Position numbers and translations under genes: made by a program. From positions 56,048-120,047 of the forward strand of contig JAILWG010000002.1 in the NCBI GenBank assembly GCA_025699075.1: 64,000 nucleotides of DNA. Reading direction: 5' to 3'. The stretch comes from Nitrosopumilus sp. Lineage in GTDB: Archaea > Thermoproteota > Nitrososphaeria > Nitrososphaerales > Nitrosopumilaceae. Position 1 is the first letter of the stretch; each line of letters starts with the position of its first letter. The notes beneath the pieces are model-generated. The model saw nothing but the letters and a program-made list of their open reading frames with translations, was not told where the DNA came from and ran no database searches. This document shows positions 9,559 to 56,203 of this stretch, piece after piece.

Positions 9559-11166
9559 TTATTTTAAATTCAACGAATTAAATTCTTCAAAATTAATCTC
9601 AAAAATCTTTACTTGGTATAACAATTGATCTTCTTTAGAATCATAAATTTTTGTTAAATATGGAAACTGATCTTCATTTTTAAAAATTTCATTTACAAAT
9701 GATGGTCTCCTTTGTTCTTTGTTGTCTATAACTAAATGAGTGATACCTTTTTCTTCAGAATTTTGTAAAAATCCTACAATATCGTTTGATTTAACCGAAA
9801 TTATATTATTACAAGCATGAATATTGAAGCAATGTTTTAAACCATTATCCATTTTCACAAAATCCTTTCTTAAAATTGGAAATTCTTCTAATTCTTGCAT
9901 TCCTATAATTGGTAAGTAACCTGATTCTGTTGTGTATTGATTAATGATTTCCGTTTTTTCAGAAACTATCTTGGCAATTTTCAAAGATTCATTTTCATGA
10001 TTCACATCTATTTTTTTAATTTCTAGAAATACAATTGAACTAACTAAAATTAAACTAACTAAAATAACTAACCCGATATTTTTATTTGAAAATTTATTGA
10101 AATATTTTCTTACTGTAAAGAGTGATATGACCGATAAAATAGGATATAAAATTAACAAATATCTGGTATCGGGCAAAAATGATATTGCATATACTGCAGG
10201 AATAGACATACAAAATAAAATTGTCACAAGAGATTTTTCATCATCTTTATTATTTCTTATAATTTGATAAATTCCATATGGAATTAAAAATATAAAAAAT
10301 GGAATTGATGCCCATCCTATTAAAAATATTATATTTTTAATATTATCCATTTTTTGAGATCTTTGTGTATTTTCTGCTATCTCTACATTTTGGTCTTGTT
10401 CATTTATTTGATCAAAAATATTGGGAATTCTAGATAATAATGAATCGTCACCTGTTACCTCTACTCTATAAACTGAAATTGGTAGAATTATTAGAATAAA
10501 TACTAAAACCAAAATTGGAATCTCATAAAAGATTTTTTTAGAATTTCTAAATCTAATTCCATATAATATTGTAAATGGTATTAATAAAATAATGCCTTCT
10601 GATCTTACAATTGATGCAAATGAAATAAGGGCAAATGCAATAATAATAATTTTTTTTCTCTGATGTAAAAAACAAACTATTGATGATGTTATTAGTAAAA
10701 TGAACAATGGCTCAGTTATTCCTAACACTGAGTTTTGAATAATTCTTGGTTCAAATACAAACAACACACAACCTATCACAGATAATTTTTCTGAAAAATA
10801 TTTTCTACCTAGAAAATATATTGGAATTATAGTTAGTGTTGACAAGCTAATAGAAATTATTCTTTGTAATGCCATCAAATCCATAAAATTATTTGAATTG
10901 AGTATTTTGAAAAAAAATGCTAAAAATATTGGCCATCCGTTATTTGCTGGAGAATAATCTAATGGTAAGGTTCCTAATAGTGCTATATCATTTGCATACC
11001 AAAAAAATAATAGTCCATCCAAAGTAATTGGAATTTCAAATGGCGAATAATGCATTCTTAAAACAAAACCAGTAATTCCTATTGCACAAATTGAAATTAT
11101 AAGATGAAGTTTTGATTTTTCTTTTATATTATAATCAATTTTCACTTTGTTATTTTTATTAGACAA
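9559..11166 (-). CDS. Multi-pass membrane GT-C glycosyltransferase (PMT/ArnT-like)
   Basis: Many hydrophobic helices, an acidic first loop (PITLDG), TEPLF and a DTRYLL motif. Confidence 0.65.
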   Translation of the reverse strand: MSNKNNKVKIDYNIKEKSKLHLIISICAIGITGFVLRMHYSPFEIPITLDGLLFFWYANDIALLGTLPLDYSPANNGWPIFLAFFFKILNSNNFMDLMALQRIISISLSTLTIIPIYFLGRKYFSEKLSVIGCVLFVFEPRIIQNSVLGITEPLFILLITSSIVCFLHQRKKIIIIAFALISFASIVRSEGIILLIPFTILYGIRFRNSKKIFYEIPILVLVFILIILPISVYRVEVTGDDSLLSRIPNIFDQINEQDQNVEIAENTQRSQKMDNIKNIIFLIGWASIPFFIFLIPYGIYQIIRNNKDDEKSLVTILFCMSIPAVYAISFLPDTRYLLILYPILSVISLFTVRKYFNKFSNKNIGLVILVSLILVSSIVFLEIKKIDVNHENESLKIAKIVSEKTEIINQYTTESGYLPIIGMQELEEFPILRKDFVKMDNGLKHCFNIHACNNIISVKSNDIVGFLQNSEEKGITHLVIDNKEQRRPSFVNEIFKNEDQFPYLTKIYDSKEDQLLYQVKIFEINFEEFNSLNLK

Positions 11167-11244: not shown

Positions 11245-12126
11245 CTATTTTTGTTCTCTAATTAGACTTACCATAGAATACAAAATGATTGATGTTAATA
11301 AGAAAATTGTACCCAAAATAGTTGAACCAGCTGCAATTAATGCTATGTTGGTTATGATAGTTCTATGAATTGAAAATTCATGTAATGTCCAGACAATAAA
11401 AAATAATCCGATTATTAAAAATACCAATCCTGGAATTCCATAAAATTTCAAAGGATGATCTAATGCTGTAAATTTCATGGTACTTAGTACTACAGAAATT
11501 CCATGACTAGCAGGATTATGAGTTGATGTATTACCATCGTAATTAATTATAATTGGAATTTCAATAGTTTTCAAACCTTTTTTAGAAGCTTTCATTAAAA
11601 TTTCAGTAGAAATACCCATTCCATTTTCAGTTGGATTAATTTCATCTAAGGCTTTTTTGTTATATCCTCTGAAACCACTTTGTGTATCCTTGATATTCAA
11701 ATCTTGAGATAATGATGAAATTTTTGTAATTGCTTTGATTCCAAATTTTCTATATTTTGGAATTTTGTCTTCTCCTTCCCCTAAAAATCTTGATCCGATT
11801 ACAATATCTGCATTGTTTGTAATCAGCGGTTTTAAAATATCTTTAATATCTGAAATATTATGTTGGCCATCTGCATCAAATGTTATTAAAATATCATAAT
11901 TCATTTCTTTTGCTTTTTCAAATAGACTTTTTATTCCAGCCCCATATCCCATGTTTTTATGATGATTGATCACAATTGCTCCCATTTTTTCTGCAATTTT
12001 TCCAGTTTGATCAGATGAACCATCATTACACACTATTACAGAATAATCTAGCTCTTGCAACTCTGAAATTATCTTTCCTATGTTTTTCTCCTCATTGTAT
12101 GCAGGTAATCCTATAGCTATCTTCAA
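11245..12126 (-). CDS. GT2 polyprenol-phosphate glycosyltransferase (DPM1-like)
   Basis: PAYNEE, NDGSSD, DADGQH, GSRF, DTQSGFR, and two C-terminal TM helices. Confidence 0.9.
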   Translation of the reverse strand: MKIAIGLPAYNEEKNIGKIISELQELDYSVIVCNDGSSDQTGKIAEKMGAIVINHHKNMGYGAGIKSLFEKAKEMNYDILITFDADGQHNISDIKDILKPLITNNADIVIGSRFLGEGEDKIPKYRKFGIKAITKISSLSQDLNIKDTQSGFRGYNKKALDEINPTENGMGISTEILMKASKKGLKTIEIPIIINYDGNTSTHNPASHGISVVLSTMKFTALDHPLKFYGIPGLVFLIIGLFFIVWTLHEFSIHRTIITNIALIAAGSTILGTIFLLTSIILYSMVSLIREQK

Positions 12127-12164: not shown

Positions 12165-13328
12165 TTATTCTCTTTTCTTGTTTAGCCTTTGATTAATTAT
12201 TACAAAATAAAGTGCTTCTATTGATGAAGCGATAACAAAAGATATTGCAACTCCTTGGATTCCTAACTCTGTTCCTATTGAAAATATTCCTACTATGTGA
12301 CTGGTAAGATAAATTGCTTTTCCAACAATTACAATTTTACTTTTTTCATCGCCTAAAAATTTTGATGTGTATCTTAATGTTATAGTCATTGAAACTGCAG
12401 CAATACTCATAATTTGAATTAGATCTATTGCAGGAATGTATTTTGGCATTAATATTGGTAATACACTTGGTGCTAATGCTATTGTTAAAATTGATGATAC
12501 TAGAACAATTAAAATCGTAATTAACCAGAGCTTCTTATGTGATTTACCGGAAGCCTCTTGTGGTAATAGATAACTAAATACAATTCCAGAAATCATCGTC
12601 AAAATCATTAAAATTTGAAAAGATAATTGATAATTTCCTAAAAATGAATATCCAAATAATGGTGCAACAATTAATTTATCTGCATATGTTCCCAATACTG
12701 AGAGCATTGAATGTCCATAGCTGTCTCTCATGAAAGGAATTTTTTCCTTTAGTGATGAAAATTCTTTTTTTGAAATTCTATATGTTTTATATCTTTTAAG
12801 AATAAATGGCATGAATGAAAATGCGTAACCTAAAACAATTCCTATAGGTCCAATAATAAAAAATAAACCGAAAGCAAATACAATTAATAAAACTCTCTGA
12901 ATTACATAATACTTTGCATATAACGGATACATTTTTTTCCCAAGTGTTTCATATAACAAATGATTAAAAATAACATATCCAATAATGTACAAACTTATTG
13001 CAATATTAGAAAATAATGTGAAAACTATTAGTGATGCAATGATGCTTGTAATTGTTGTAACAATCAGTATAGGTGATTCAATTTTCTTTTCTTTTGCAGA
13101 AAAAACCATTAGTGCATTTCCTGCACCTAAAAATGAAATCGCACTTGCTACTGATCCAATTGCAATAAAATAGTTAATTTCTCCATATTGCTCAGAATTC
13201 ATTAGTGAGGCTAAAACCAACCAAAAAACTGACGAAATTGCATTTCCTACTAAATTTGCAATTCCTACTGCTGAAAGATCTTTAAAAGGTAAAATTTTCT
13301 CAGAAATTCTTCTTCTATACTCGTCCAA
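12165..13328 (-). CDS. Wzx-like oligosaccharide flippase
   Basis: Polytopic membrane protein with EQYGEINY and DKLIVAPLFG..FLGNY patterns typical of PST/MOP flippases. Confidence 0.8.
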   Translation of the reverse strand: MDEYRRRISEKILPFKDLSAVGIANLVGNAISSVFWLVLASLMNSEQYGEINYFIAIGSVASAISFLGAGNALMVFSAKEKKIESPILIVTTITSIIASLIVFTLFSNIAISLYIIGYVIFNHLLYETLGKKMYPLYAKYYVIQRVLLIVFAFGLFFIIGPIGIVLGYAFSFMPFILKRYKTYRISKKEFSSLKEKIPFMRDSYGHSMLSVLGTYADKLIVAPLFGYSFLGNYQLSFQILMILTMISGIVFSYLLPQEASGKSHKKLWLITILIVLVSSILTIALAPSVLPILMPKYIPAIDLIQIMSIAAVSMTITLRYTSKFLGDEKSKIVIVGKAIYLTSHIVGIFSIGTELGIQGVAISFVIASSIEALYFVIINQRLNKKRE

Positions 13329-13342
13329 GGTTTTCAGCTATT

Positions 13343-14458
13343 CTAATCTCGTTCTATCCAAGAAATAAGTTGTTCTTGTAATTTCTCTGTACCCTGAGGT
13401 TTGTTTTCGAAAATATTCCTTTTTTCAGCAGGATCTTCTTTTAGGTTATATAATTGCCATTCTCTTATAGTCTTATTAAAAATTAATTTGTACTCTGAAT
13501 TTTTTATACAAAAAATGTTTGGTTCTTTTGGAGATGGATATGGTCCTTGAAGTGCACCTGTCTCAGAAAATACTTTAGTTTTATTTTCTAAATGCTTATT
13601 TTCTAATAAGAAATCATACACACTTTCCCCAGGTAAACTATTTTTATCTATTCCAACAAAATCTAATATTGTAGGAAAAATATCAATAGTTTCTCTTAGA
13701 CTGCTGTTGATTCTATTTTCAATTATTCCTTTTCCAATAAATAAATAAAATGATCTAATTGTTTCTTCAAATGTAAACGATCCATAATTTCTTTCACCAA
13801 ATCTCTCCCCAACTCCTGTACCATGATCTGAAAAGAAAATAATTATTGTATCATTTTTCAAATCTAAACTATCGATTGAATTTTTTATTAATTTTGAATA
13901 GCTTCCAGCTTCTAGGAAAACTTTATCATAATTTTTCAAATTTTCTTCTTTTCTTTGATAAAATTTTTCATCATTCCATTCATATTTTTTTAATATCTCA
14001 GAAACCGTTATCGTATGAATTCTCGTAAAATGAAGAAAAACGAATAATGGTTTTCCATTAGATTTTTCTTTACACGCTTTCAAGAATTCTGGATGTCTTT
14101 GTCTTAGATCATCAGAATACTCATCATGAAATTGGTGTATATCAAATCCTCTTTTAGTGATTATTCTCTCTGAGAGTAAATCACATGCTGTAAAATATCC
14201 TGCTTCTTGTAGTATTTCTGGTAGAATTTTTACCGAATCTTTTAATCTAAACATCTTGTAGTAAGCATCGATTCCATTATCTTTACCATACAAACCTGAA
14301 AAAGTAGCATTTACAGAACCAATTGTGTATGGGATTGCTGTATTTACATTATTTAATGTTGTACCTATTTTCATCAAATCTGTAAATTCTGTTGATGTTT
14401 CAATCCTATCCCATCTTGCCCCATCTAATAATATCATTATGATATTTGGTGGATTCAT
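13343..14458 (-). CDS. Alkaline-phosphatase/sulfatase-superfamily protein with a Thr nucleophile (putative phospho-group transferase)
   Basis: PNIIMILLDGARWD, TIGSVNATFSG in place of CxPSRxxxxTG, FSDHG, LYNLKEDPAEKRN. Confidence 0.75.
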   Translation of the reverse strand: MNPPNIIMILLDGARWDRIETSTEFTDLMKIGTTLNNVNTAIPYTIGSVNATFSGLYGKDNGIDAYYKMFRLKDSVKILPEILQEAGYFTACDLLSERIITKRGFDIHQFHDEYSDDLRQRHPEFLKACKEKSNGKPLFVFLHFTRIHTITVSEILKKYEWNDEKFYQRKEENLKNYDKVFLEAGSYSKLIKNSIDSLDLKNDTIIIFFSDHGTGVGERFGERNYGSFTFEETIRSFYLFIGKGIIENRINSSLRETIDIFPTILDFVGIDKNSLPGESVYDFLLENKHLENKTKVFSETGALQGPYPSPKEPNIFCIKNSEYKLIFNKTIREWQLYNLKEDPAEKRNIFENKPQGTEKLQEQLISWIERD

Positions 14459-14459
14459 T

Positions 14460-15254
14460 TTAATTCTCCATCTGAATTAATTTTGATATAGTTTTTTCTT
14501 TAGTCATTTTTTCATATAGCTTATAATCTTTTATTGAATCTACTTCTAGCCATCCATTTTTAATGTAAATTGGTTTCAGTTTTTGTTGCTCTTTTATTAA
14601 TCCTTGAAGAAAATCTGTCATGAATGAATTTTCAAAACTTAATTTTTCATTTAAAGGATTTTTTCCAGTTTTAATTGATTCATTTTTGGATTTTTTATAA
14701 AAGGATTTGATAATCTCTAAACCTTTTCCTTGTACTTTAATTAATCCAATGTATTGCCCTTGAATGTCTTTAATGTTGTTTGTTTTTTGTCCAATTTCTA
14801 TAATATTGCCTTCATCATTAATTTTCAAACTTTCTGCGTCATCTAGAGGATTTTCAAATCTCATCTTCCAATAATTTTCCCAATTTTTGTCAATAATTAT
14901 TGCAAATTCATTTGGGTCATCCATTAATTTCTCTAAAACCTTTTTTTCATAAATTATATCTCCATAAGAAATTATTATCGGCTCATTAAATTCGTTTTCT
15001 GCACAAAATAAAGTTTCAATCATGTTTGTAGATTCAAATTTTTCGTTAAAATAATATTTGATTTCTGGAAATTTTATCTCATCTTTTTTATAACCTCTTA
15101 CAACTGATATATCATCAATTTTACATTTTCTAAATGTAATTAATTGCCATTCTAAAAGAGATTTTCCCAATACCTTTACCATACATTTAGGTTTATCATT
15201 TGTCAATGGACGAAGTCTTTTACCTTCACCTGCTGCTAAAATTATTGCTTTCAA
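14460..15254 (-). CDS. Phosphoglutamine/phosphocholine cytidylyltransferase (Cj1416/LicC-like)
   Basis: AIILAAGEGKRLRPLT.DKPKC, SYGDI, GQYIGL, WLEVDS. Adjacent to the Cj1417- and Cj1418-like genes. Confidence 0.8.
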   Translation of the reverse strand: MKAIILAAGEGKRLRPLTNDKPKCMVKVLGKSLLEWQLITFRKCKIDDISVVRGYKKDEIKFPEIKYYFNEKFESTNMIETLFCAENEFNEPIIISYGDIIYEKKVLEKLMDDPNEFAIIIDKNWENYWKMRFENPLDDAESLKINDEGNIIEIGQKTNNIKDIQGQYIGLIKVQGKGLEIIKSFYKKSKNESIKTGKNPLNEKLSFENSFMTDFLQGLIKEQQKLKPIYIKNGWLEVDSIKDYKLYEKMTKEKTISKLIQMEN

Positions 15255-15259
15255 TTTAT

Positions 15260-15895
15260 TCAGATATTTTTTAATAAAAATTTAATTACTATTTCACTAT
15301 TCTCATCTTGAGTTCTTTCTGGATGCCACATTACTCCCATTATTGGTAATGTTTCATGAAAAAATCCTTCAACAGTTTTATCATTATTATCTAATGCAAA
15401 TATTTTCAAAGATTTCCCTATGTCGTCTTGTTTAATTATATTTCTATGGTACGAATTCACTGAAATTTTATCATTTTTAATAAAATCGATTATTTTTTCA
15501 TTTAAAATTGTAACCTCGTGATTTTTCCCTACATGTGAATTATCTGAAATTGTTGTTATTTTGCCTTCAAAAAAATTATTTATTACTTGCATTCCTCTAC
15601 AAACTCCAAAGATTGGAATTTTTTTATTTATCCCAAATTCAATAATTTCCGTTTCAGTCTGATCTCTTTCTATATCATCTCCAATGTTGTCTCCGCCTGA
15701 TAAAATAATTCCTTGTATTTCATTAATTTCTAAAAATCTTGTCAGATCTGAAAGATTATTTGGAATTAATATTGGGATCATGTATTCATTATCTAATAAT
15801 TTAATCCAATCTTGCGATAATGCATCTCGTTTTTCTTCATATCCTTGTGCATTTACAATTCTAGTCGTAATTCCAATTTTTTTGAATTCTGTCAT
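15260..15895 (-). CDS. Gamma-glutamyl-CDP-amidate hydrolase (Cj1417-like class I amidotransferase/peptidase C26)
   Basis: EKRDALSQDW, ILSGG, GVCRGMQ (catalytic Cys), NSYH, WHPER (His-Glu). Confidence 0.8.
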   Translation of the reverse strand: MTEFKKIGITTRIVNAQGYEEKRDALSQDWIKLLDNEYMIPILIPNNLSDLTRFLEINEIQGIILSGGDNIGDDIERDQTETEIIEFGINKKIPIFGVCRGMQVINNFFEGKITTISDNSHVGKNHEVTILNEKIIDFIKNDKISVNSYHRNIIKQDDIGKSLKIFALDNNDKTVEGFFHETLPIMGVMWHPERTQDENSEIVIKFLLKNI

Positions 15896-15938
15896 ATTAC
15901 TTAGTTATATTGAAGTTTTAAGATTCTTTTGATAAAAA

Positions 15939-18347
15939 CTATTTAATGTAACCTAGTGATTTGAGCGCTTTTTTTTCTTCAATAAACTCATCAGGTTTTT
16001 CATGTTTTAGAATTATGATCTGTTGATTCTTACAATCTATCATTACTTTTGAGGCTAACATTAATTTTTCAAAGATTATTTCCCCACAACCTATAACTGC
16101 TGGAATTCTAGTTTCTGCACATCTAATGGCCATATGGGATGCAACTCCTCCATATTTTGTGATTAATCCCTTGATATTTTTTGTAAATAACCAATCATAT
16201 CCTGGATCAGCATTTTCTAATAAAATAATTTTATTTTGAAGATTATTAAAGCTTGATACTTTTTCAATATTTTTTATGTCTCCAATAATTTTTTCTCTTG
16301 ATATAAAATTGGGTTTTGAAGAATAATGAAAAATAAATTCAAAATCCCTACTTGATTTAATTAAAGGTGGCAAAACAAGATGTTGATTGACTTTCTTTTC
16401 TTGAATTTGTTTTTCAATATTTTTTTTCCATTTAGATTTAATTTGATTTTTAGTTAATTTTTTATAATCATTTAACATGACTTGAATGTCTAAATTTGCA
16501 ATTTCCTCTCGAGTAAATCCTAACTTTTTACTAGCTTCAGCAACCAATTCAAGTGCATCACTTAGGTTTCTTGTAAATTCAAATTTCAATTCTTCACGTT
16601 GAACTAAGGATTTTATTATAAATCCTTCAAAATCATCCCACTGAATATTTAATTCATGTTCTTTAAAACTTATTTTTCTATTTTTTTTAACACTTCTTTT
16701 TCTTCTAGTATTTTTTAAAAATTCAATATTTTCAAAGTACCTTTCATTTTTATCATATCTTGGTGCAGTAATATCATAAGTTCCAGGTCTTAAATGACCA
16801 AATTCTTTTAAAAATTCCTTCTTTGTAATTTTTCCCTCTGACAACGATTTGAATTCATTTTTTAATTTTGATAAAGGACTTTCAATTTTTTCCATTAGAT
16901 ATTCATAATATTCTAAGTTGATATAGGAACGATTAATCATACTTTTTAATAAAATTGTGCCTATGAAAGCAATTCTAGCCATTGTTGAAAACGGTAATGT
17001 TCCATTTTTCTTACAATCTAAAAGTAATTTCTCTGCAGCACAAAGATAATCTATGTATTCTTTTTTTGAATTTTTTAATTCTTTTTGAATTATTTTTCTA
17101 TTCTCACCTAATTCATAAATTGATTTAGAACAATTGTTAAAAATCTTAGGAAAATTTAAGAAAATATTCTTGGTAAATTCTATTAATAGTTTCTTAATTT
17201 TTTTTATTTCTTCATTTGAAAAATCATGATTTTTTAGTTCTTTTAGTCTTTTATTAATTGAAAAATCATAACATGAAAATAAAATTTCAAATTCTACTTT
17301 ATCATGTAAGTGGTGATTTTTATCTAATTTTCTAATATAATATTTCAATAATTTTTTCTTTAGTTTATTGTCAAAAGATGCAGGTATCATTGAACTAAAA
17401 CTGGCTATTATGTCGATATAGGGCTTATTTCCAAATTTGAACATAAGTGAATTTGGTGACACATCTGTGTATCCAATAATTTTTCTACCTTCTCTCCATT
17501 CTTTTTTTAATAAAAGAAAATCATATAGAGAATAATCCAATAGATTTGGATTATTCCCAATTATTTCTGATGGGTTCCAATCTGCCATATCTGAAAAAAT
17601 TATTTTTTTTAATGGTTGATGTAAAGATTCTGAAAGTTTCAAAAATTTATTTTTATTTTTCTTTAAGTTTTTTTCTATAGTTTTCTGTATATTCTCATCG
17701 TCATTTTTCAAAAATGTGATTGGTCTTACCTGAAAAATCACTATTGATGATTTTGTAAGCCCAAATTCAATGTCTAATGGAATACTTCCAAAATGCGATT
17801 CAACTTCTTTAATTGATTCTATGATGTTTGAAAATTTTTTTTCTATGCTGATAGAATAGTTTCTAAAAATTTTTACAACCTTGCTTCTTTCTCCCTTTGT
17901 TACTGAATCAGTAGAGATACCTTCATCATAATTTATTACATAAAACGGTGATCCTAAATCTTCAGTTCTAGTAAACACTACTCCACTCATTAGAACATTT
18001 AATGTTTGATTTTGAACTAAAATTTGATTTTCTTTATTGAAATTTCCCTTTCTTTGATATGACTTAATAATTTTGTTTATGGCATTTTTAACCTTAAATT
18101 TTGAATTTGGGGGAATATTTAAGATGCTTTCATAAATACCTGCCTGAGAATTTGTGATTGAATCTTCACCAATGGCAGAACTTCTAATGATGATCTTTGT
18201 TTGAAAATTATTACAAATTTTGTTAAGAATTTGACTTTCATCTTTTTCCCATTCTAAAACTGTGAAATAAAAAATCTTTTCAATTTTTGATTTTTTTAAC
18301 GATTTTTGTAAAAATCTAAGAATATCTGCTTTTGAAGAAAATTCCAT
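15939..18347 (-). CDS. L-glutamine kinase (Cj1418-like PEP-utilising/PPDK-related enzyme)
   Basis: IIRSSAIGEDS..QAG.YES ATP-grasp, DIEF..FQVRP, MADWNPSEIIG, HDKVEF, GHLRPGTYDI, ADPGYDW, GGVASHMAIRCAE phospho-His; 802 aa. Confidence 0.85.
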   Translation of the reverse strand: MEFSSKADILRFLQKSLKKSKIEKIFYFTVLEWEKDESQILNKICNNFQTKIIIRSSAIGEDSITNSQAGIYESILNIPPNSKFKVKNAINKIIKSYQRKGNFNKENQILVQNQTLNVLMSGVVFTRTEDLGSPFYVINYDEGISTDSVTKGERSKVVKIFRNYSISIEKKFSNIIESIKEVESHFGSIPLDIEFGLTKSSIVIFQVRPITFLKNDDENIQKTIEKNLKKNKNKFLKLSESLHQPLKKIIFSDMADWNPSEIIGNNPNLLDYSLYDFLLLKKEWREGRKIIGYTDVSPNSLMFKFGNKPYIDIIASFSSMIPASFDNKLKKKLLKYYIRKLDKNHHLHDKVEFEILFSCYDFSINKRLKELKNHDFSNEEIKKIKKLLIEFTKNIFLNFPKIFNNCSKSIYELGENRKIIQKELKNSKKEYIDYLCAAEKLLLDCKKNGTLPFSTMARIAFIGTILLKSMINRSYINLEYYEYLMEKIESPLSKLKNEFKSLSEGKITKKEFLKEFGHLRPGTYDITAPRYDKNERYFENIEFLKNTRRKRSVKKNRKISFKEHELNIQWDDFEGFIIKSLVQREELKFEFTRNLSDALELVAEASKKLGFTREEIANLDIQVMLNDYKKLTKNQIKSKWKKNIEKQIQEKKVNQHLVLPPLIKSSRDFEFIFHYSSKPNFISREKIIGDIKNIEKVSSFNNLQNKIILLENADPGYDWLFTKNIKGLITKYGGVASHMAIRCAETRIPAVIGCGEIIFEKLMLASKVMIDCKNQQIIILKHEKPDEFIEEKKALKSLGYIK

Positions 18348-18394: not shown

Positions 18395-19729
18395 TCACAG
18401 ATATCCCATTTTTCTTAATTCTTCTTCAATCATTTTTTCTTCATCTGAAATTTTTTCTCCTGAAAAATCTTTTGAATTTTTTAAAATTTTCTCTAATATC
18501 TCTTCATATTTACTAATGATTTTTGGTTGGTCTAGGGAAATATTGTTTTGCTCCTTTGGATCCTTTTCTAAGTCAAATAGAAACACATCTTTATTTTTTT
18601 CAATTCTATTTCTAAAATATTTATATGAACTTGTTCTAATTCCTATCGTTTTACCAGGTGTTTTGGGTTTTATTGATCCAACTTCAATATATGCAGGTAT
18701 TTCATTTTCATTATTTTCTATACTTGAAAAAATATCTCTTCCATGAATTTTTTCATCAATTTCAATATTTGCTAATCGTGCAATTGTAGGATAGATATCT
18801 ATTTGTCTTACCAAATTTTTTATTTCCATCTGATTTGGTGTATTTAAACCTGTAATAATTAAAGGAATTTTTATTACATCATCAAATAAATATTTTGTAT
18901 ATCCTCGTGGAATGAATTTTTTTTCTTTTTCAATATCAATATTTCTTGTTTTAATTTTTTCATTTGTATTCAAAACAAATAGAAAAAATTTTTCACCAAG
19001 AAATGTTAACTGAGGAAACTTTTTTTTTAGTTTTCTCATTGCTTTATAAAAATTTGGCATATCTCTTAAATCAAAATCTGATTCAACATATTCACCATGA
19101 TCTGATGTAATTATTACTAAAGTATCTTCTAAAGAAATTTGTTCAAAGATTAATTTTAACCATGAATCTGTTGCAGATAATAGTTGATCGTATTTACTCT
19201 TACCCCATTCTTCACTGTTAAATTGTTCTGGAACTTTCACTAATGAACCAGTACCGTGAATATCTACTAAATGTAGATAATGGAACCATGGCTCAGTTTT
19301 AGTATTTTTTTTAAAGAATTCTAATGCCTTATTTCCTAATTGACCAAGGATTGTTTCTTCTTCTTTCCATTTGGTGTGATCAAACATAAAATAGTCATCA
19401 AAATCTTTAATAATTTTTTCAAACCATGTATATTTTGGTATTGTAGCAAATAATTTGTAGTTATTTTTTTTTAAATTTTTAAAAAATCCCATCTTTGAAG
19501 TTTCAATGTTTGTTTGTGTTATTCCTGTTTCAAATGGATATACACCGCTAAAAAGTGATCCTAGACAAGTTCCAGTAACATCAGATGTGCTAATTACTTG
19601 TGAAAACATAGTACCCTCTTTGATTAGTTTTCTAATGTTTGGAATTTTTGCATATTCCTGACTTGTTATTCTATCTGAACGAAGAGAGTCAATAACAACT
19701 AATAATATATTTGGATTTTTTTTGGTCAT
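18395..19729 (-). CDS. Second alkaline-phosphatase/sulfatase-superfamily protein with a Thr nucleophile
   Basis: PNILLVVIDSLRSD, TGTCLGSLFSG, HLVDIH, TSDHGE, RQIDIYPT, and C-terminal EELRKMGYL. Confidence 0.75.
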   Translation of the reverse strand: MTKKNPNILLVVIDSLRSDRITSQEYAKIPNIRKLIKEGTMFSQVISTSDVTGTCLGSLFSGVYPFETGITQTNIETSKMGFFKNLKKNNYKLFATIPKYTWFEKIIKDFDDYFMFDHTKWKEEETILGQLGNKALEFFKKNTKTEPWFHYLHLVDIHGTGSLVKVPEQFNSEEWGKSKYDQLLSATDSWLKLIFEQISLEDTLVIITSDHGEYVESDFDLRDMPNFYKAMRKLKKKFPQLTFLGEKFFLFVLNTNEKIKTRNIDIEKEKKFIPRGYTKYLFDDVIKIPLIITGLNTPNQMEIKNLVRQIDIYPTIARLANIEIDEKIHGRDIFSSIENNENEIPAYIEVGSIKPKTPGKTIGIRTSSYKYFRNRIEKNKDVFLFDLEKDPKEQNNISLDQPKIISKYEEILEKILKNSKDFSGEKISDEEKMIEEELRKMGYL

Positions 19730-24536: not shown

Positions 24537-26423
24537 GTGATGAATGAAATAATAATTTTAAAAAATTCTTTCAAAGTTACTGAGAAAGTTTCAAAAATTT
24601 TTGAAAATAAAGATAATTTGATTATATCTTTGGATTATAATTCTCATAAACAATTGAATAATTTAAAAATCAAGCATGTTCCCTTTGAAAATTATTTAGA
24701 TGTAAATGATTTTAAAATTATTGATAATACAACATTTAAAATAAATACATCTTGGCATACACATCAAGAAATCAAGGAATCACTAACAATTGACGGAATT
24801 AATTTTGGTTGGTTGCTAGAACAAGAATTATATTTTTTTCTTTTAACAACAATCACAAACTTTTTTTCTTTAATGAAAATTAAAGAAATTGAAAAAAACT
24901 TTCAGAAAATAATTGTATCAAGCGAATTAATGAAAATGGCCAAAATTATTTTCCCTAGCTGCGTTATTGAGGCATTAGAAGAAAATGATCAAAAACTTCA
25001 AAATTTTGGTTTTGATACTTATGCAATTAAATATAATATTGGACCTTTCCCACTATCAATTCGTATTCCAAGAAAATATTTTTTTCTTTTACAAAAATTT
25101 TATGAAAAGTCATTTATCCCAATTTTTCAGAAATGTTTTTCAAGAATAAAAAATGATTCATCATCTATATTGTTGATTGATTTTAATTCTGCTCGTGAAG
25201 ATGATTTTTTAAGATGTTTAAAAGAAAAAGATACTAATGTATTCTTGTTAAATCGCCGACGTAGTGCAATTTGGAATCTCAAGTCTTTTTTAGCGGTCAA
25301 AAATACCAATTCTATTCCTACCACTTATGAGAATTTTTTAGATAATTCTGATAGAAAACAAATTGAAACTGAAATAAAAAATATGAATATTAATCTCGAA
25401 TCTCTCTTTTCTAATTATACGTTATTTTCTGAAATATTCTCTATATCGAATGTTTCATTTTGGCCACATATTGAAAATTATTTTAAAAATTATTGTTTGG
25501 ATAGATTTTCTGAAGGAATTTGTGAATTAATTGGTTCAAGAAAACTGTTATCGAAAATTAAGCCTTCAGTTATTTTGCATTTTTTTGGTGTTGCTTTACA
25601 AGAAAAAATTATCATTCATGAAGCTAAAAAGATCAACATCCCTTCTATCATGTTACAACATGGAGCTCCTCATATTTTTTTACCCGGATGGGCAGAATTC
25701 AATCCCATGTCTGGAACTTTGCCTGTATATGATGAAAAAATGGCCGTTTGGGGCCAAATGATGAAAGAATATGCGTTAAAAAATGGAATGAGTCAAGATA
25801 ATCTAATTGTCTCTGGAAGCATCAGACATGATCCATATTTTAAAAAAAACAATCCCGTAAAAGATGGAATAATCCTTGTTGCATTATTACCATATTTTTT
25901 CAAACGAGCAGAGGATCAATCCATTTCATCATTTCAGAAGTATGAAGAATCACTAAAAATAATTTGTAATGTTTTAAAGAAAATTAAAGATAGAAAAAAA
26001 ATCGTTAAACTACATCCTACTGATATGAATTTTAATTCTATGTATATAGAACCTATTATTCATGAAATTGATCCTTCAATACAAATTATTGTTGAGGCTG
26101 ATTTAACTAAATTAATTCCTTCATCTGATATTGTTATCACTCATGGATTAACTACTTTTATTTTGGATTCAAATATCTTTCAAAAACCTACAGTCACTTT
26201 AATGTATAATCAAGAAGAATTTTCAAGTAAACTCAGTCATGGTTATTCAAAATTATTTGAGTACACTGATTCTGAAAAATTTGAAGCCTATGTTCATGAT
26301 CTTTTAAAAGATGAAAAAATTCGCAATGAAAACATATCTAATGGAATTGAATTTCTAAACTCTTATTTATCAAATCAAGGAAATGCATCTGAATATCTCT
26401 CAAATAAAATTTGCACATTTTAG
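24537..26423 (+). CDS. Large GT-B-like capsule/surface-carbohydrate transferase (possible ulosonate transferase)
   Basis: MLQHG, AVWG, VSGSIRHD, VKLHP, SDIVIT..TT..LD...FQKP. This pattern is shared by CDP-glycerol and CMP-sugar transferase-like proteins. Confidence 0.5.
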   Translation: MMNEIIILKNSFKVTEKVSKIFENKDNLIISLDYNSHKQLNNLKIKHVPFENYLDVNDFKIIDNTTFKINTSWHTHQEIKESLTIDGINFGWLLEQELYFFLLTTITNFFSLMKIKEIEKNFQKIIVSSELMKMAKIIFPSCVIEALEENDQKLQNFGFDTYAIKYNIGPFPLSIRIPRKYFFLLQKFYEKSFIPIFQKCFSRIKNDSSSILLIDFNSAREDDFLRCLKEKDTNVFLLNRRRSAIWNLKSFLAVKNTNSIPTTYENFLDNSDRKQIETEIKNMNINLESLFSNYTLFSEIFSISNVSFWPHIENYFKNYCLDRFSEGICELIGSRKLLSKIKPSVILHFFGVALQEKIIIHEAKKINIPSIMLQHGAPHIFLPGWAEFNPMSGTLPVYDEKMAVWGQMMKEYALKNGMSQDNLIVSGSIRHDPYFKKNNPVKDGIILVALLPYFFKRAEDQSISSFQKYEESLKIICNVLKKIKDRKKIVKLHPTDMNFNSMYIEPIIHEIDPSIQIIVEADLTKLIPSSDIVITHGLTTFILDSNIFQKPTVTLMYNQEEFSSKLSHGYSKLFEYTDSEKFEAYVHDLLKDEKIRNENISNGIEFLNSYLSNQGNASEYLSNKICTF

Positions 26424-51761: not shown

Positions 51762-53021
51762 ATGCAAAAACTCTCAGGACTATTCTTGTTTGCAGTACTA
51801 ATTTCAGGAATATTCTCTTCCAGTTCTGCATTTGCACAGATACCAACAGCTGTAGATGACTCTTACTCTGTAGATGAGGATTCTCTCCTAACTGTTTTTC
51901 CTGATGGAATCTTGTTTAATGATTCTGATGTAGGTAATGATTTCTTTTCAATAATTCTTACTAACACTGGGTTTGGAATACTTGCTTTGAACCAAAATGG
52001 AACTTTTACTTATCAACCAAATGAAAATTTCTCTTCAACTGATTCATTCACTTATGCCCTAAACAATGGAACTCATAACAGTAACAATGCTACAGTTACC
52101 ATTACTGTTAATCCCATTAACGATGCACCTGTTGCACTAGATGATCTAGCTGAAACTCAACAAAACGTCCCAATTCGTATTCATGTTCTTGAAAATGACT
52201 CTGATGTAGAAGATGATTCATTGAACATAATTCTAGAAGTTGATCCTTCCATAACAATGGGCAATGCTACATTGGATGGCTCTGACGTATTATTTACTCC
52301 ACAAGCAAACTTTGTAGGGAAAACAAGTTTTTCCTATAGGGCATCTGATGGTGATAAAACAAGCAATCTAGCCAACGTAACTATTACAATAAATCCAATT
52401 AATGATACACCTAATGCTATAGATGACACTGCAACAACACCAGAAAATACTCCAGTCATAATTCTAGTGTTAGATAATGATATTGATGATGATTCACTTA
52501 CCATTGATTCCATAACACAAGGAACTAACGGAACCGTTACAACAAACGGAACTATCATAACTTATACTCCGGATACAAACTTTAACGGAACTGATTCTTT
52601 TACCTATACAATATCTGATGGAGTAATTTCCAGTAATTTTGCAACAGTTACAGTAAATGTTACTGCAGTAAATGATGACACTGATGACGAAACAGACGAT
52701 GAAACCGATGATGATACTGATTCAACTGACAAGAAGGAACTCAAAAAACAGCTAAAGACACTAAAAGATGAATACAAAGCAAAAGAGAAGGAACTCAAAA
52801 AACAGCTAAAGACACTAAAAGATGAATACAAAGCAAAAGAGAAGGAACTCAAAAAACAGCTAAAGGAATTCAAGAAAGATAAGAAATCACACGATGACGA
52901 TGATGACAAAGAACATGATCATAAAGACAAAAAAGGAAAAGGACATGACAAACATGAAGACAAACAAAAAAGCAAAGGTCATGAAAAATATGACGATCAT
53001 GACGACAAAGATGACGATTAG
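51762..53021 (+). CDS. Secreted protein with three cadherin/Big_9 Ig-like repeats and a charged tail
   Basis: Signal peptide (..SSSAFA), three repeats P.A.DD...ND.D...YxP..NF.G.DSFTY...VTITV.P.ND, an acidic linker, a coiled repeat and a D/K/H-rich tail. Confidence 0.85.
   Translation: MQKLSGLFLFAVLISGIFSSSSAFAQIPTAVDDSYSVDEDSLLTVFPDGILFNDSDVGNDFFSIILTNTGFGILALNQNGTFTYQPNENFSSTDSFTYALNNGTHNSNNATVTITVNPINDAPVALDDLAETQQNVPIRIHVLENDSDVEDDSLNIILEVDPSITMGNATLDGSDVLFTPQANFVGKTSFSYRASDGDKTSNLANVTITINPINDTPNAIDDTATTPENTPVIILVLDNDIDDDSLTIDSITQGTNGTVTTNGTIITYTPDTNFNGTDSFTYTISDGVISSNFATVTVNVTAVNDDTDDETDDETDDDTDSTDKKELKKQLKTLKDEYKAKEKELKKQLKTLKDEYKAKEKELKKQLKEFKKDKKSHDDDDDKEHDHKDKKGKGHDKHEDKQKSKGHEKYDDHDDKDDD
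52732..52865 (+). repeat. Exact 54-bp tandem repeat (about 2.5 copies) encoding KELKKQLKTLKDEYKAKE
   Basis: Identical units start at 52732, 52786 and 52840 (partial). Confidence 0.95.
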
Positions 53022-55821: not shown

Positions 55822-56203
55822 CTTTATCAGGGATTATCTCAATAATGCAATCTGTATCATCTAGTAATTGTTTTGCGGATTTATTTTCTAATGTTTTAAA
55901 ATATCGCAAGAGAATTTTTTTTGCAATTAATTTTACTTTGGAATTTTCTAAAATTAGATTGGCATTGCCTTGCCCCATTACTCCGTAAATATTTGGAGCA
56001 TTAATTCCCACATCTACACAAAATGAGACTCTGTTGTTTCTTTTTAGATTTTTTATCTTTTGCCGGTTAGTGTTTGTTCCAATGTAAAATTTCTTAGAAC
56101 TGTAGATATACCATACAGGTGAAATATGTGGAGTCTTATTTTTCCCAACTGTTGCTAATCGTAAAATTTTTTGCTCCTTTAGAAATTCATCTCTTTTGTT
56201 CAT
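55802..56203 (-). CDS. Pyridoxamine 5'-phosphate oxidase-like (FMN/F420 split barrel) protein
   Basis: RLATV....PHISPVWY, K.KNL.RN.RVSFCVD. Confidence 0.8.
   Translation of the reverse strand: MNKRDEFLKEQKILRLATVGKNKTPHISPVWYIYSSKKFYIGTNTNRQKIKNLKRNNRVSFCVDVGINAPNIYGVMGQGNANLILENSKVKLIAKKILLRYFKTLENKSAKQLLDDTDCIIEIIPDKVTVWNY

Follow-up and report, generated by a model that had tools for sequence, protein, structure and literature searches.

The 64,000-nucleotide stretch of DNA analysed here (the window; positions 56,048 to 120,047 of contig JAILWG010000002.1, assembly GCA_025699075.1) comes from Nitrosopumilus sp. and carries three contiguous, co-oriented genes resembling those that supply the activated phosphoramidate for the O-methyl phosphoramidate (MeOPN) capsule modification of Campylobacter jejuni. 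The same gene run holds genes for two soluble proteins of the alkaline-phosphatase (AP) superfamily on either side of this trio, AP-371 and AP-444 (named for their lengths in residues), which were absent from the gene list of the original prediction made for this DNA. That prediction had expected a variant route downstream of the donor, and the flanking pair, with Thr at the nucleophile position, is now the candidate for it. We propose that the P(O)(O-)NH2 group of cytidine diphosphoramidate (CDP-amidate), the probable product of the trio, is moved by AP-371, probably with AP-444, onto a cytoplasmic precursor of a surface glycan, a reading to which we give about an even chance. The trio alone is ordinary, a known chemistry in a new host; the novelty would lie downstream of it, in the candidate delivery pair and in its coupling to the kinase by a C-terminal tail, a candidate new variant part of the pathway.

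The trio consists of an L-glutamine kinase (Cj1418-like, 802 residues; 15939..18347), a gamma-glutamyl-CDP-amidate hydrolase with a class I glutamine-amidotransferase fold (Cj1417-like, 211 residues; 15260..15895) and a CTP:phosphoglutamine cytidylyltransferase, a nucleotidyltransferase with a TTG start (Cj1416-like, 264 residues; 14460..15254); all genes of the run, here and below, are on the reverse strand and are given in window positions. Compared with the C. jejuni reference locus returned by our genome scan (L116), identity is 36% over 799 columns for the kinase, 33% over 208 for the hydrolase and 40% over 254 for the cytidylyltransferase, and each protein is the best match in the whole genome to its counterpart. 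The kinase has ATP-grasp, central and swivel-His domains and matches NCBIfam PRK05849, which we take to be the Cj1418 family, at 813 bits (cut-off 501) over positions 10-788 of 789. The motifs on which the original prediction was built are in place: MADWNPSEIIG at residues 254-264 and SHMAIRC with His738 in the kinase, and CRG and HPE, which hold Cys99, His191 and Glu193, in the hydrolase. In the alignment, the counterpart of His738 in the C. jejuni kinase is His737, presumably the catalytic phospho-His, and the two kinases have central-domain motifs in common; the three hydrolase residues also align with the C. jejuni protein, and the hydrolase gene stands between the other two as it does in L116. 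Grouping of the kinase with phosphoenolpyruvate (PEP) synthase or rifampicin phosphotransferase, the alternative named in the original prediction, was rejected (63 bits to TIGR01418, cut-off 740, and 36 bits to the rifamycin phosphotransferase model NF041857, cut-off 999, vs 813 to PRK05849); a PDB search returned no solved structure close to the kinase. The cytidylyltransferase, whose best PDB match is the CTP:phosphocholine cytidylyltransferase 1JYK, scores 184 bits to the L116 protein, 149 bits (31% identity) to a paralogue from phosphonate clusters (see below) and 58 to 1JYK, the scores coming from different programs. With these identities, retained catalytic motifs and best genome-wide matches, the three proteins are by homology orthologues of Cj1418, Cj1417 and Cj1416, as had been supposed, and very probably make CDP-amidate from glutamine, ATP and CTP (reaction scheme after parts of PMC6429109, PMC12096443 and bioRxiv 10.1101/2024.11.05.622173).

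The trio is far commoner than the original prediction implied. A genome scan with an alignment query (a single-kinase query gave no match) returned at least 761 kinase-related stretches; the 79 loci examined, from many bacterial and archaeal phyla, include the kinase in 77, the hydrolase in 69 and the transferase in 71. Only 32 of these 79 loci (of at least 761) show a Cj1415-like gene within the locus DNA examined, and lack of one is thus the usual state. The trio is also reported, in the part of that preprint consulted, from an archaeal element, the Cobalt Borg, where genes 308-311 were assigned by predicted structure and lie beside phosphonate genes (bioRxiv 10.1101/2024.11.05.622173); this differs in being an extrachromosomal element of methane oxidizers, and neither a sulfatase, an alkaline phosphatase nor a thaumarchaeon is named in the main text of the preprint. 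Within the host family, for which we used 301 genomes that are kin, so that counts over them are not independent, the kinase occurs in 10. In a midpoint-rooted FastTree tree of 83 sequences, these 10 kinases from thaumarchaea fall into a single clade (support 1.0), which is nested with proteins of Planctomycetota, Omnitrophota, Woesearchaeota and Methanosarcinales; these groups, and not Campylobacter, hold the nearest relatives. The host was expected to be an ammonia oxidizer, and archaeal amoA is present in its genome (E 3e-115). Our literature search, with most subscription papers outside its reach, found no paper pairing phosphoramidate with Nitrosopumilus and nothing on ammonia oxidizers with a phosphoramidate pathway. 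As further observations on the kinase, the family match in genome G224 (L007/L016) crosses one TAA stop shortly before it ends, where the next gene begins, and the open reading frame (ORF) reads 802 residues; and many non-thaumarchaeal kinases (L054-L071 and other scan loci) are ORFs of 950-1050 residues with an N-terminal extension, which the window kinase lacks.

Other parts of the MeOPN system were not found in the genome assembly, which is 85% complete and is the scope of the searches in this paragraph. For Cj1415, the matches to PF01583 were all fragmentary, covering 42-50 of its 152 positions, and one of them scored 21.7 bits (cut-off 21.1); the L116 protein gave no match as a query, and a profile of 32 homologues matched short stretches only. 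The Cj1419/20 methyltransferases and the Cj1421/22 transferase gave only partial, weak matches outside the glycan island that surrounds the cassette, the latter in a weaker test because the query was a truncated 410-residue ORF of L116 labelled by position; other O-methyltransferases do occur in the island, none orthologous to Cj1419/20. Queries with TagF-like, MpnS, sulfate adenylyltransferase and sulfotransferase proteins gave no match, and there was no PEP mutase at E 1e-50, the one match to TIGR02320 being rejected as such (128 bits, well under the range of 274-311 bits for PEP mutases of the clusters). What was first noted for the window, that Cj1415 and Cj1421/22 have no recognizable relative there, thereby holds for the assembly too. 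Compared with C. jejuni, the archaeal cassette has full-length trio orthologues in the same order within a surface-glycan locus, but relatives of Cj1415, Cj1419/20 and Cj1421/22 were not found, and it has two flanking AP genes and a tail on the kinase. On this gene content it appears to be no member of the full MeOPN system.

AP-371 (13343..14458) and AP-444 (18395..19729) are the only two AP proteins of this kind found in the genome, and both have the S1-sulfatase type of the alkaline-phosphatase fold. The closest solved fold to AP-371 is an S1 sulfatase (Z 37.2, root-mean-square deviation 2.6, 357 aligned residues, 18% identity); AP-444 matches PF00884 at 99 bits. Thr45, His148, Asp211 and His212 of AP-371 are invariant in 67 of 67 relatives, and Asp12 is nearly so. 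In AP-444 the nucleophile position (Thr52) is Thr in 36 and Ser in two of 38 aligned relatives, with Asp14, Asp210 and His211 invariant. A formylglycine sulfatase was rejected for both proteins: AP-371, though closest in fold to the S1 formylglycine sulfatases and phosphonate monoester hydrolases, has no (C/S)xPxR motif and keeps Thr45 at that place in 67 of 67 sequences, and AP-444 has Thr52 or Ser in 38 of 38 instead of the motif.

LtaS, EptA/MCR-1 and BcsG are membrane-anchored, extracytoplasmic enzymes that use a Thr nucleophile with Asp/Asp/His metal ligands and lipid donors. AP-371 belongs to the same superfamily (Z 21-28) and has the Thr nucleophile and the metal ligands, but no membrane anchor or extracytoplasmic domain (its highest 19-residue hydropathy is 1.28, and AP-444 likewise has no membrane segment), and it would use a cytidine monophosphate (CMP) donor. 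It may therefore work like the LtaS/EptA transferases, yet its sequence makes it no member of that group. The AP-371 gene starts 1 bp downstream of the cytidylyltransferase gene, and that of AP-444 lies 47 bp upstream of the kinase gene; in relatives, AP-371 directly follows the cytidylyltransferase in six of seven untruncated loci and in the seventh is separated from it by a few genes; a further two loci are cut off at a contig edge. AP-444 is far more variable (28-39% identity) and has a large insertion.

The distribution of the AP-371 family across the 301 genomes ties it to two donor pathways, the trio and the methylphosphonate cluster of marine ammonia oxidizers, which comprises PEP mutase, a decarboxylase, MpnS and a PntC-like cytidylyltransferase. 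The kinase occurs in 10 genomes, PEP mutase in 23, both in three and the AP-371 family in 34: it is present in all 10 kinase genomes, in 22 of the 23 PEP-mutase genomes (the one exception being 62% complete) and in five of the 271 genomes with neither, or in 29 of 30 donor-pathway genomes vs 5/271 others. The AP-444 family follows closely, in 26 of 30 vs 5/271, and all eight genomes that have an AP-371 copy of at least 54% identity also have the kinase. In the phosphonate clusters an AP-371 paralogue (34-41% identity) lies between MpnS (E 8e-203 to PDB 6B9S) and the cytidylyltransferase and decarboxylase, and an AP-444 paralogue and a paralogue of the window cytidylyltransferase (31%) are present too. 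These clusters differ from the trio in making a P-C rather than a P-N group, and with three genomes carrying both, mutual exclusion of the two was rejected. PntC activates phosphonates with CMP, and among its neighbours LicD-like and glycosyl transferases have been named (both from part of PMC6697681).

A tree of the AP family (114 family rows and three outgroup rows, with duplicates and rows under 330 residues dropped) divides along the same line: a 19-member clade (support 0.999) has 16 members beside phosphonate genes and none beside the trio, and a separate clade (1.0) holds all trio-linked copies, including one from Woesearchaeota and one from Methanosarcinales. For metagenome loci we took the closest 75 of 439 confirmed, which biases the sample; a trio gene is seen in 56 of them. 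A strict pairing of every close AP-371 copy with the trio was rejected on these loci, though it held in eight of eight genomes. Six family representatives are fusions, two with a nucleotidyltransferase (P0245, P0247), one with an adenosine 5'-phosphosulfate (APS)-kinase/Cj1415-like domain (P0262) and three with a methyltransferase. In some phosphonate clusters the AP-371 paralogue also has beside it a dioxygenase, methylphosphonate-hydroxylase-like or TmpA-like at scores below cut-off (L043:2596-3420, L047:503-1441, L050:3045-3971), which hints at other phosphonate coats.

A second link between donor and delivery genes is a short C-terminal tail. At its C-terminus the kinase has 20 residues that the C. 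jejuni protein lacks, and they include an LxxLGY tail (residues 788-802, 15942..15986). The tail is present on 117 of the 120 closest kinase homologues and on one of 77 genome-scan kinases, the thaumarchaeal one, and in an alignment of 30 kinases its Tyr and Gly never vary. Of the 3585 stop-to-stop frames of this genome, just those of the kinase and AP-444 have the tail; elsewhere, 22 of 23 PEP mutases of phosphonate clusters, the entry enzymes that correspond to the window kinase, and 36 of 45 AP-444 family members end in it, and it is found on one of 159 AP-371 family proteins. Of the 78 non-thaumarchaeal loci, just two have ORFs with the tail, and these are the two in which AP-371 is also present. 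The AlphaFold2 model of AP-444 has a helix at residues 429-440 of its tail (429-444; 18398..18445) joined by a low-confidence linker (predicted local distance difference test, pLDDT, <50 at 422-426), and does not fix the position of the tail.

We predicted the complex of AP-371 with kinase residues 773-802, alongside three controls. The score was 0.80 and that of the best control 0.01, runs agreed in 100% of contacts, and the partner had pLDDT of at least 66; the score mark used was attained by 116 of 157 complexes of solved structure and by two of 215 mismatched pairs, counts that are only roughly valid with the alignments used here. Kinase residues 788-801 are predicted to contact the invariant Tyr66 and His148 of AP-371, together with Leu156, Pro310 and others, and Thr45 is not among the predicted interface residues. 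The kinase tail is thus predicted to dock beside the AP-371 active site. A 33-residue tail query had no PDB match at E 10, and the best stretches of PDB matches to AP-444 stop before its tail; a sequence search found no like complex in the PDB, which leaves room for one. Small proteins of about 70-110 residues that end in the same tail, and that look to us like ribbon-helix-helix proteins, occur beside AP-371/AP-444 genes in relatives (L008:1230-1436, L046:2653-2856, L066:6085-6306, L066:14100-14426, L160:7470-7700, L176:454-657), and none is found in this genome.

In the scheme that we propose, the kinase would N-phosphorylate the glutamine amide by way of His738, the cytidylyltransferase would add CMP, and the hydrolase would remove glutamate, as orthology suggests; since no Cj1415 relative was found, 3'-phosphorylation would presumably not follow. 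Thr45 of AP-371 would then attack the distal phosphorus with release of CMP and pass the group to a sugar hydroxyl, a step to which context, fold and fusions point, and the kinase tail, predicted to dock at the mouth of the AP-371 site, would couple the first and last enzymes. To judge from neighbouring genes, the decorated sugar would be flipped and joined to the surface glycan, the putative acceptor being the S-layer N-glycan, an exopolysaccharide (EPS) or a lipid head group. We know of no enzyme that does exactly the reaction proposed for AP-371.

A number of observations weigh against this proposal. The genomes compared are kin, and we therefore attach no probability to the co-occurrence. 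No trio gene is seen in 19 of the 75 metagenome loci (eight of the 19 are at least 6 kb long, and three lie beside phosphonate genes), and in five metagenome loci with two family copies it is the distant one, not the close one, that follows the cytidylyltransferase. Five genomes have the AP-371 family with neither kinase nor PEP mutase, in one case beside a sulfate adenylyltransferase. The family lies within the locus DNA of only two of the 78 non-thaumarchaeal kinase loci listed, so that the trio does not need it. Among distant AP relatives, 37 of 64 carry the tail in cis, which makes the docking model a fit and not proof that in the cell the site is occupied by the kinase and not by AP-444: the tail of AP-444 itself could occupy the same place on AP-371, and the prediction may reflect a general fit rather than a kinase partner. 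Finally, in the part of PMC3907429 consulted, four of 13 Campylobacter strains with the trio gave no MeOPN signal.

If the trio does make CDP-amidate, the AP proteins could still act as hydrolases, to liberate free phosphoramidate, to recycle donor made in excess or to edit the decoration, with transfer left to another enzyme, such as a 628-residue protein of the island (24537-26423) or a gene missing from the incomplete assembly. The nearest solved folds to AP-371 are indeed hydrolases (Z up to 37), above the Thr transferases LtaS (Z 28) and EptA (Z 24), Thr-nucleophile nucleotide pyrophosphatases, which cleave nucleotide anhydrides, are a precedent, and in one relative (G132) a TagF-like phosphotransferase gene (PF04464) also adjoins the cassette. 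The TagF-like query, however, had no match in this genome, a relative of the 628-residue protein sits beside nonulosonic-acid genes in a kinase-free genome (L235), and the nucleotidyltransferase fusions and the donor-type clades of the AP tree suit a biosynthetic role better; we regard the hydrolase explanation as unlikely. Assigning the decoration of the glycan to AP-444, with AP-371 a relay that takes the group first or an adaptor that organizes the complex through the tail, seems to us distinctly improbable. The AP-444 family tracks both donor pathways almost as well, keeps its Thr/Ser and metal ligands, and in its variability and insertion resembles what an acceptor-specific enzyme might have; it is AP-371, however, that is tied to the cytidylyltransferase, and G132 has AP-371 but no AP-444 within about 9 kb of the trio.

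The kinase might instead act on another amide or amine, or the cassette might feed a small molecule or lipid head group, so that no glycan phosphoramidate is made. Identities to the characterized enzymes are only 33-40%, the hydrolase, whose best NCBIfam match of all models is NF045546 over its full length, reaches 126 bits where the family cut-off is 250, and TalE, an enzyme of the same fold family, has the amine of a dipeptide as its phosphorylation target (PMC6482885). We give this little chance, as the C. jejuni gene order is kept, trio genes are neighbours in most of the 79 loci, the central-domain motifs are those of the C. jejuni kinase, and the cassette lies within a glycan island. Least probable of all, in our judgement only a slight chance, is that the LxxLGY tail is an acceptor or carrier, with AP-371 modifying a Tyr or Ser of the tail with phosphoramidate or phosphonate, either for feedback control or to make the tail a relay arm: the invariant Tyr and Gly and the predicted position of the tail next to His148 would suit this, but Thr45 lies outside the predicted interface and the glycan-island context would be left unexplained.

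Returning to AP-371 as the transferase, CDP-amidate is the nitrogen analogue of CMP-methylphosphonate, with NH2 for CH3, which would explain why one enzyme family occurs in both clusters. More tentatively, and as a possibility that we hold at well below even, a single cytoplasmic family of Thr-nucleophile transferases would load phosphoramidate or its isostere methylphosphonate, perhaps also sulfate, onto the surface glycans of ammonia oxidizers, the entry enzymes (glutamine kinase, PEP mutase, CysD) having separately gained an LxxLGY tail that plugs into a tail-less transferase. A 2012 paper on methylphosphonate reportedly included putative sulfatases and a nucleotidyltransferase among the genes of the methylphosphonate cluster. 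Sulfatases are mentioned without function for one phosphonolipid cluster group in the part of PMC8942020 consulted, and in the literature searched we found no paper naming an enzyme for the esterification of glycan with methylphosphonate in these archaea, and no account of a delivery pair common to this cassette and the methylphosphonate cluster or of tail coupling.

The cassette offers two soluble candidate enzymes, a donor that the adjacent genes should supply, the residues Thr45, His148 and Thr52, and a predicted docking peptide. If the proposed transfer is right, abundant marine nitrifiers would put an acid-labile P-N group on their surface, with relevance to virus receptors and to dissolved organic phosphorus and nitrogen, and the methylphosphonate transferase would be identified by paralogy. 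The wider, shared-transferase reading would name the maker of the methylphosphonate esters behind aerobic marine methane, and P-N and P-C coats would be exchangeable modules of one machine.

Downstream of AP-371, the run continues with a flippase-like multi-pass membrane protein (12165..13328; seven hydrophobic segments), a GT2 glycosyltransferase (11245..12126; PF00535, two C-terminal hydrophobic segments by hydropathy) and a PMT_2-like membrane glycosyltransferase (9559..11166; PF13231 at 33.5 bits, cut-off 26.1). From AP-444 through the trio, AP-371 and these three genes the intergenic gaps are 47, 43, 5, 1, 14, 38 and 78 bp. The flippase-like protein has no Pfam match at 1e-6, its label resting on homologues (PF01943 in one of 40% identity) and on hydropathy. 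Of the setting originally described, the glycan island holds, with 25-29% GC vs 33-35% for the contigs and with sugar-nucleotide, nonulosonic-acid, heptose and methyltransferase genes, but the flippase-like gene does not adjoin the trio, being separated from it by the gene for AP-371. The same contig also has an STT3/AglB gene, some 36 kb ahead of the window.

The island spans about 45 kb (window 4400-49200) and is flanked by genes for a radical-SAM protein (2621) and an eIF-2B-like protein (49238); near the same flanking genes relatives have the trio, a methylphosphonate cluster or sulfate genes. The 628-residue island protein has no Pfam (1e-6) or NCBIfam match, and its relatives of about 27% identity, including the one in L235, lie by nonulosonic-acid genes; it is possibly a nonulosonate transferase. 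Just outside the island, a 419-residue protein (window 51762-53021) with three Big_9/cadherin-like domains is a possible surface glycoprotein acceptor. In relatives, a formyltransferase-like gene (PF00551) and a gene for a 192-residue protein without Pfam or NCBIfam match usually face the cassette tail to tail (L015:7465-8726; L018:4804-6080; 48 of the 75 loci L132-L206; L054 and L066); the pair is absent from this genome and possibly serves further tailoring, e.g. N-formylation. A 190-residue protein, again without Pfam or NCBIfam match, recurs beside sulfate adenylyltransferase, sulfotransferase or kinase genes (L006:561-1130, L030:877-1446, L019:13811-14374, L239:6444-7022).

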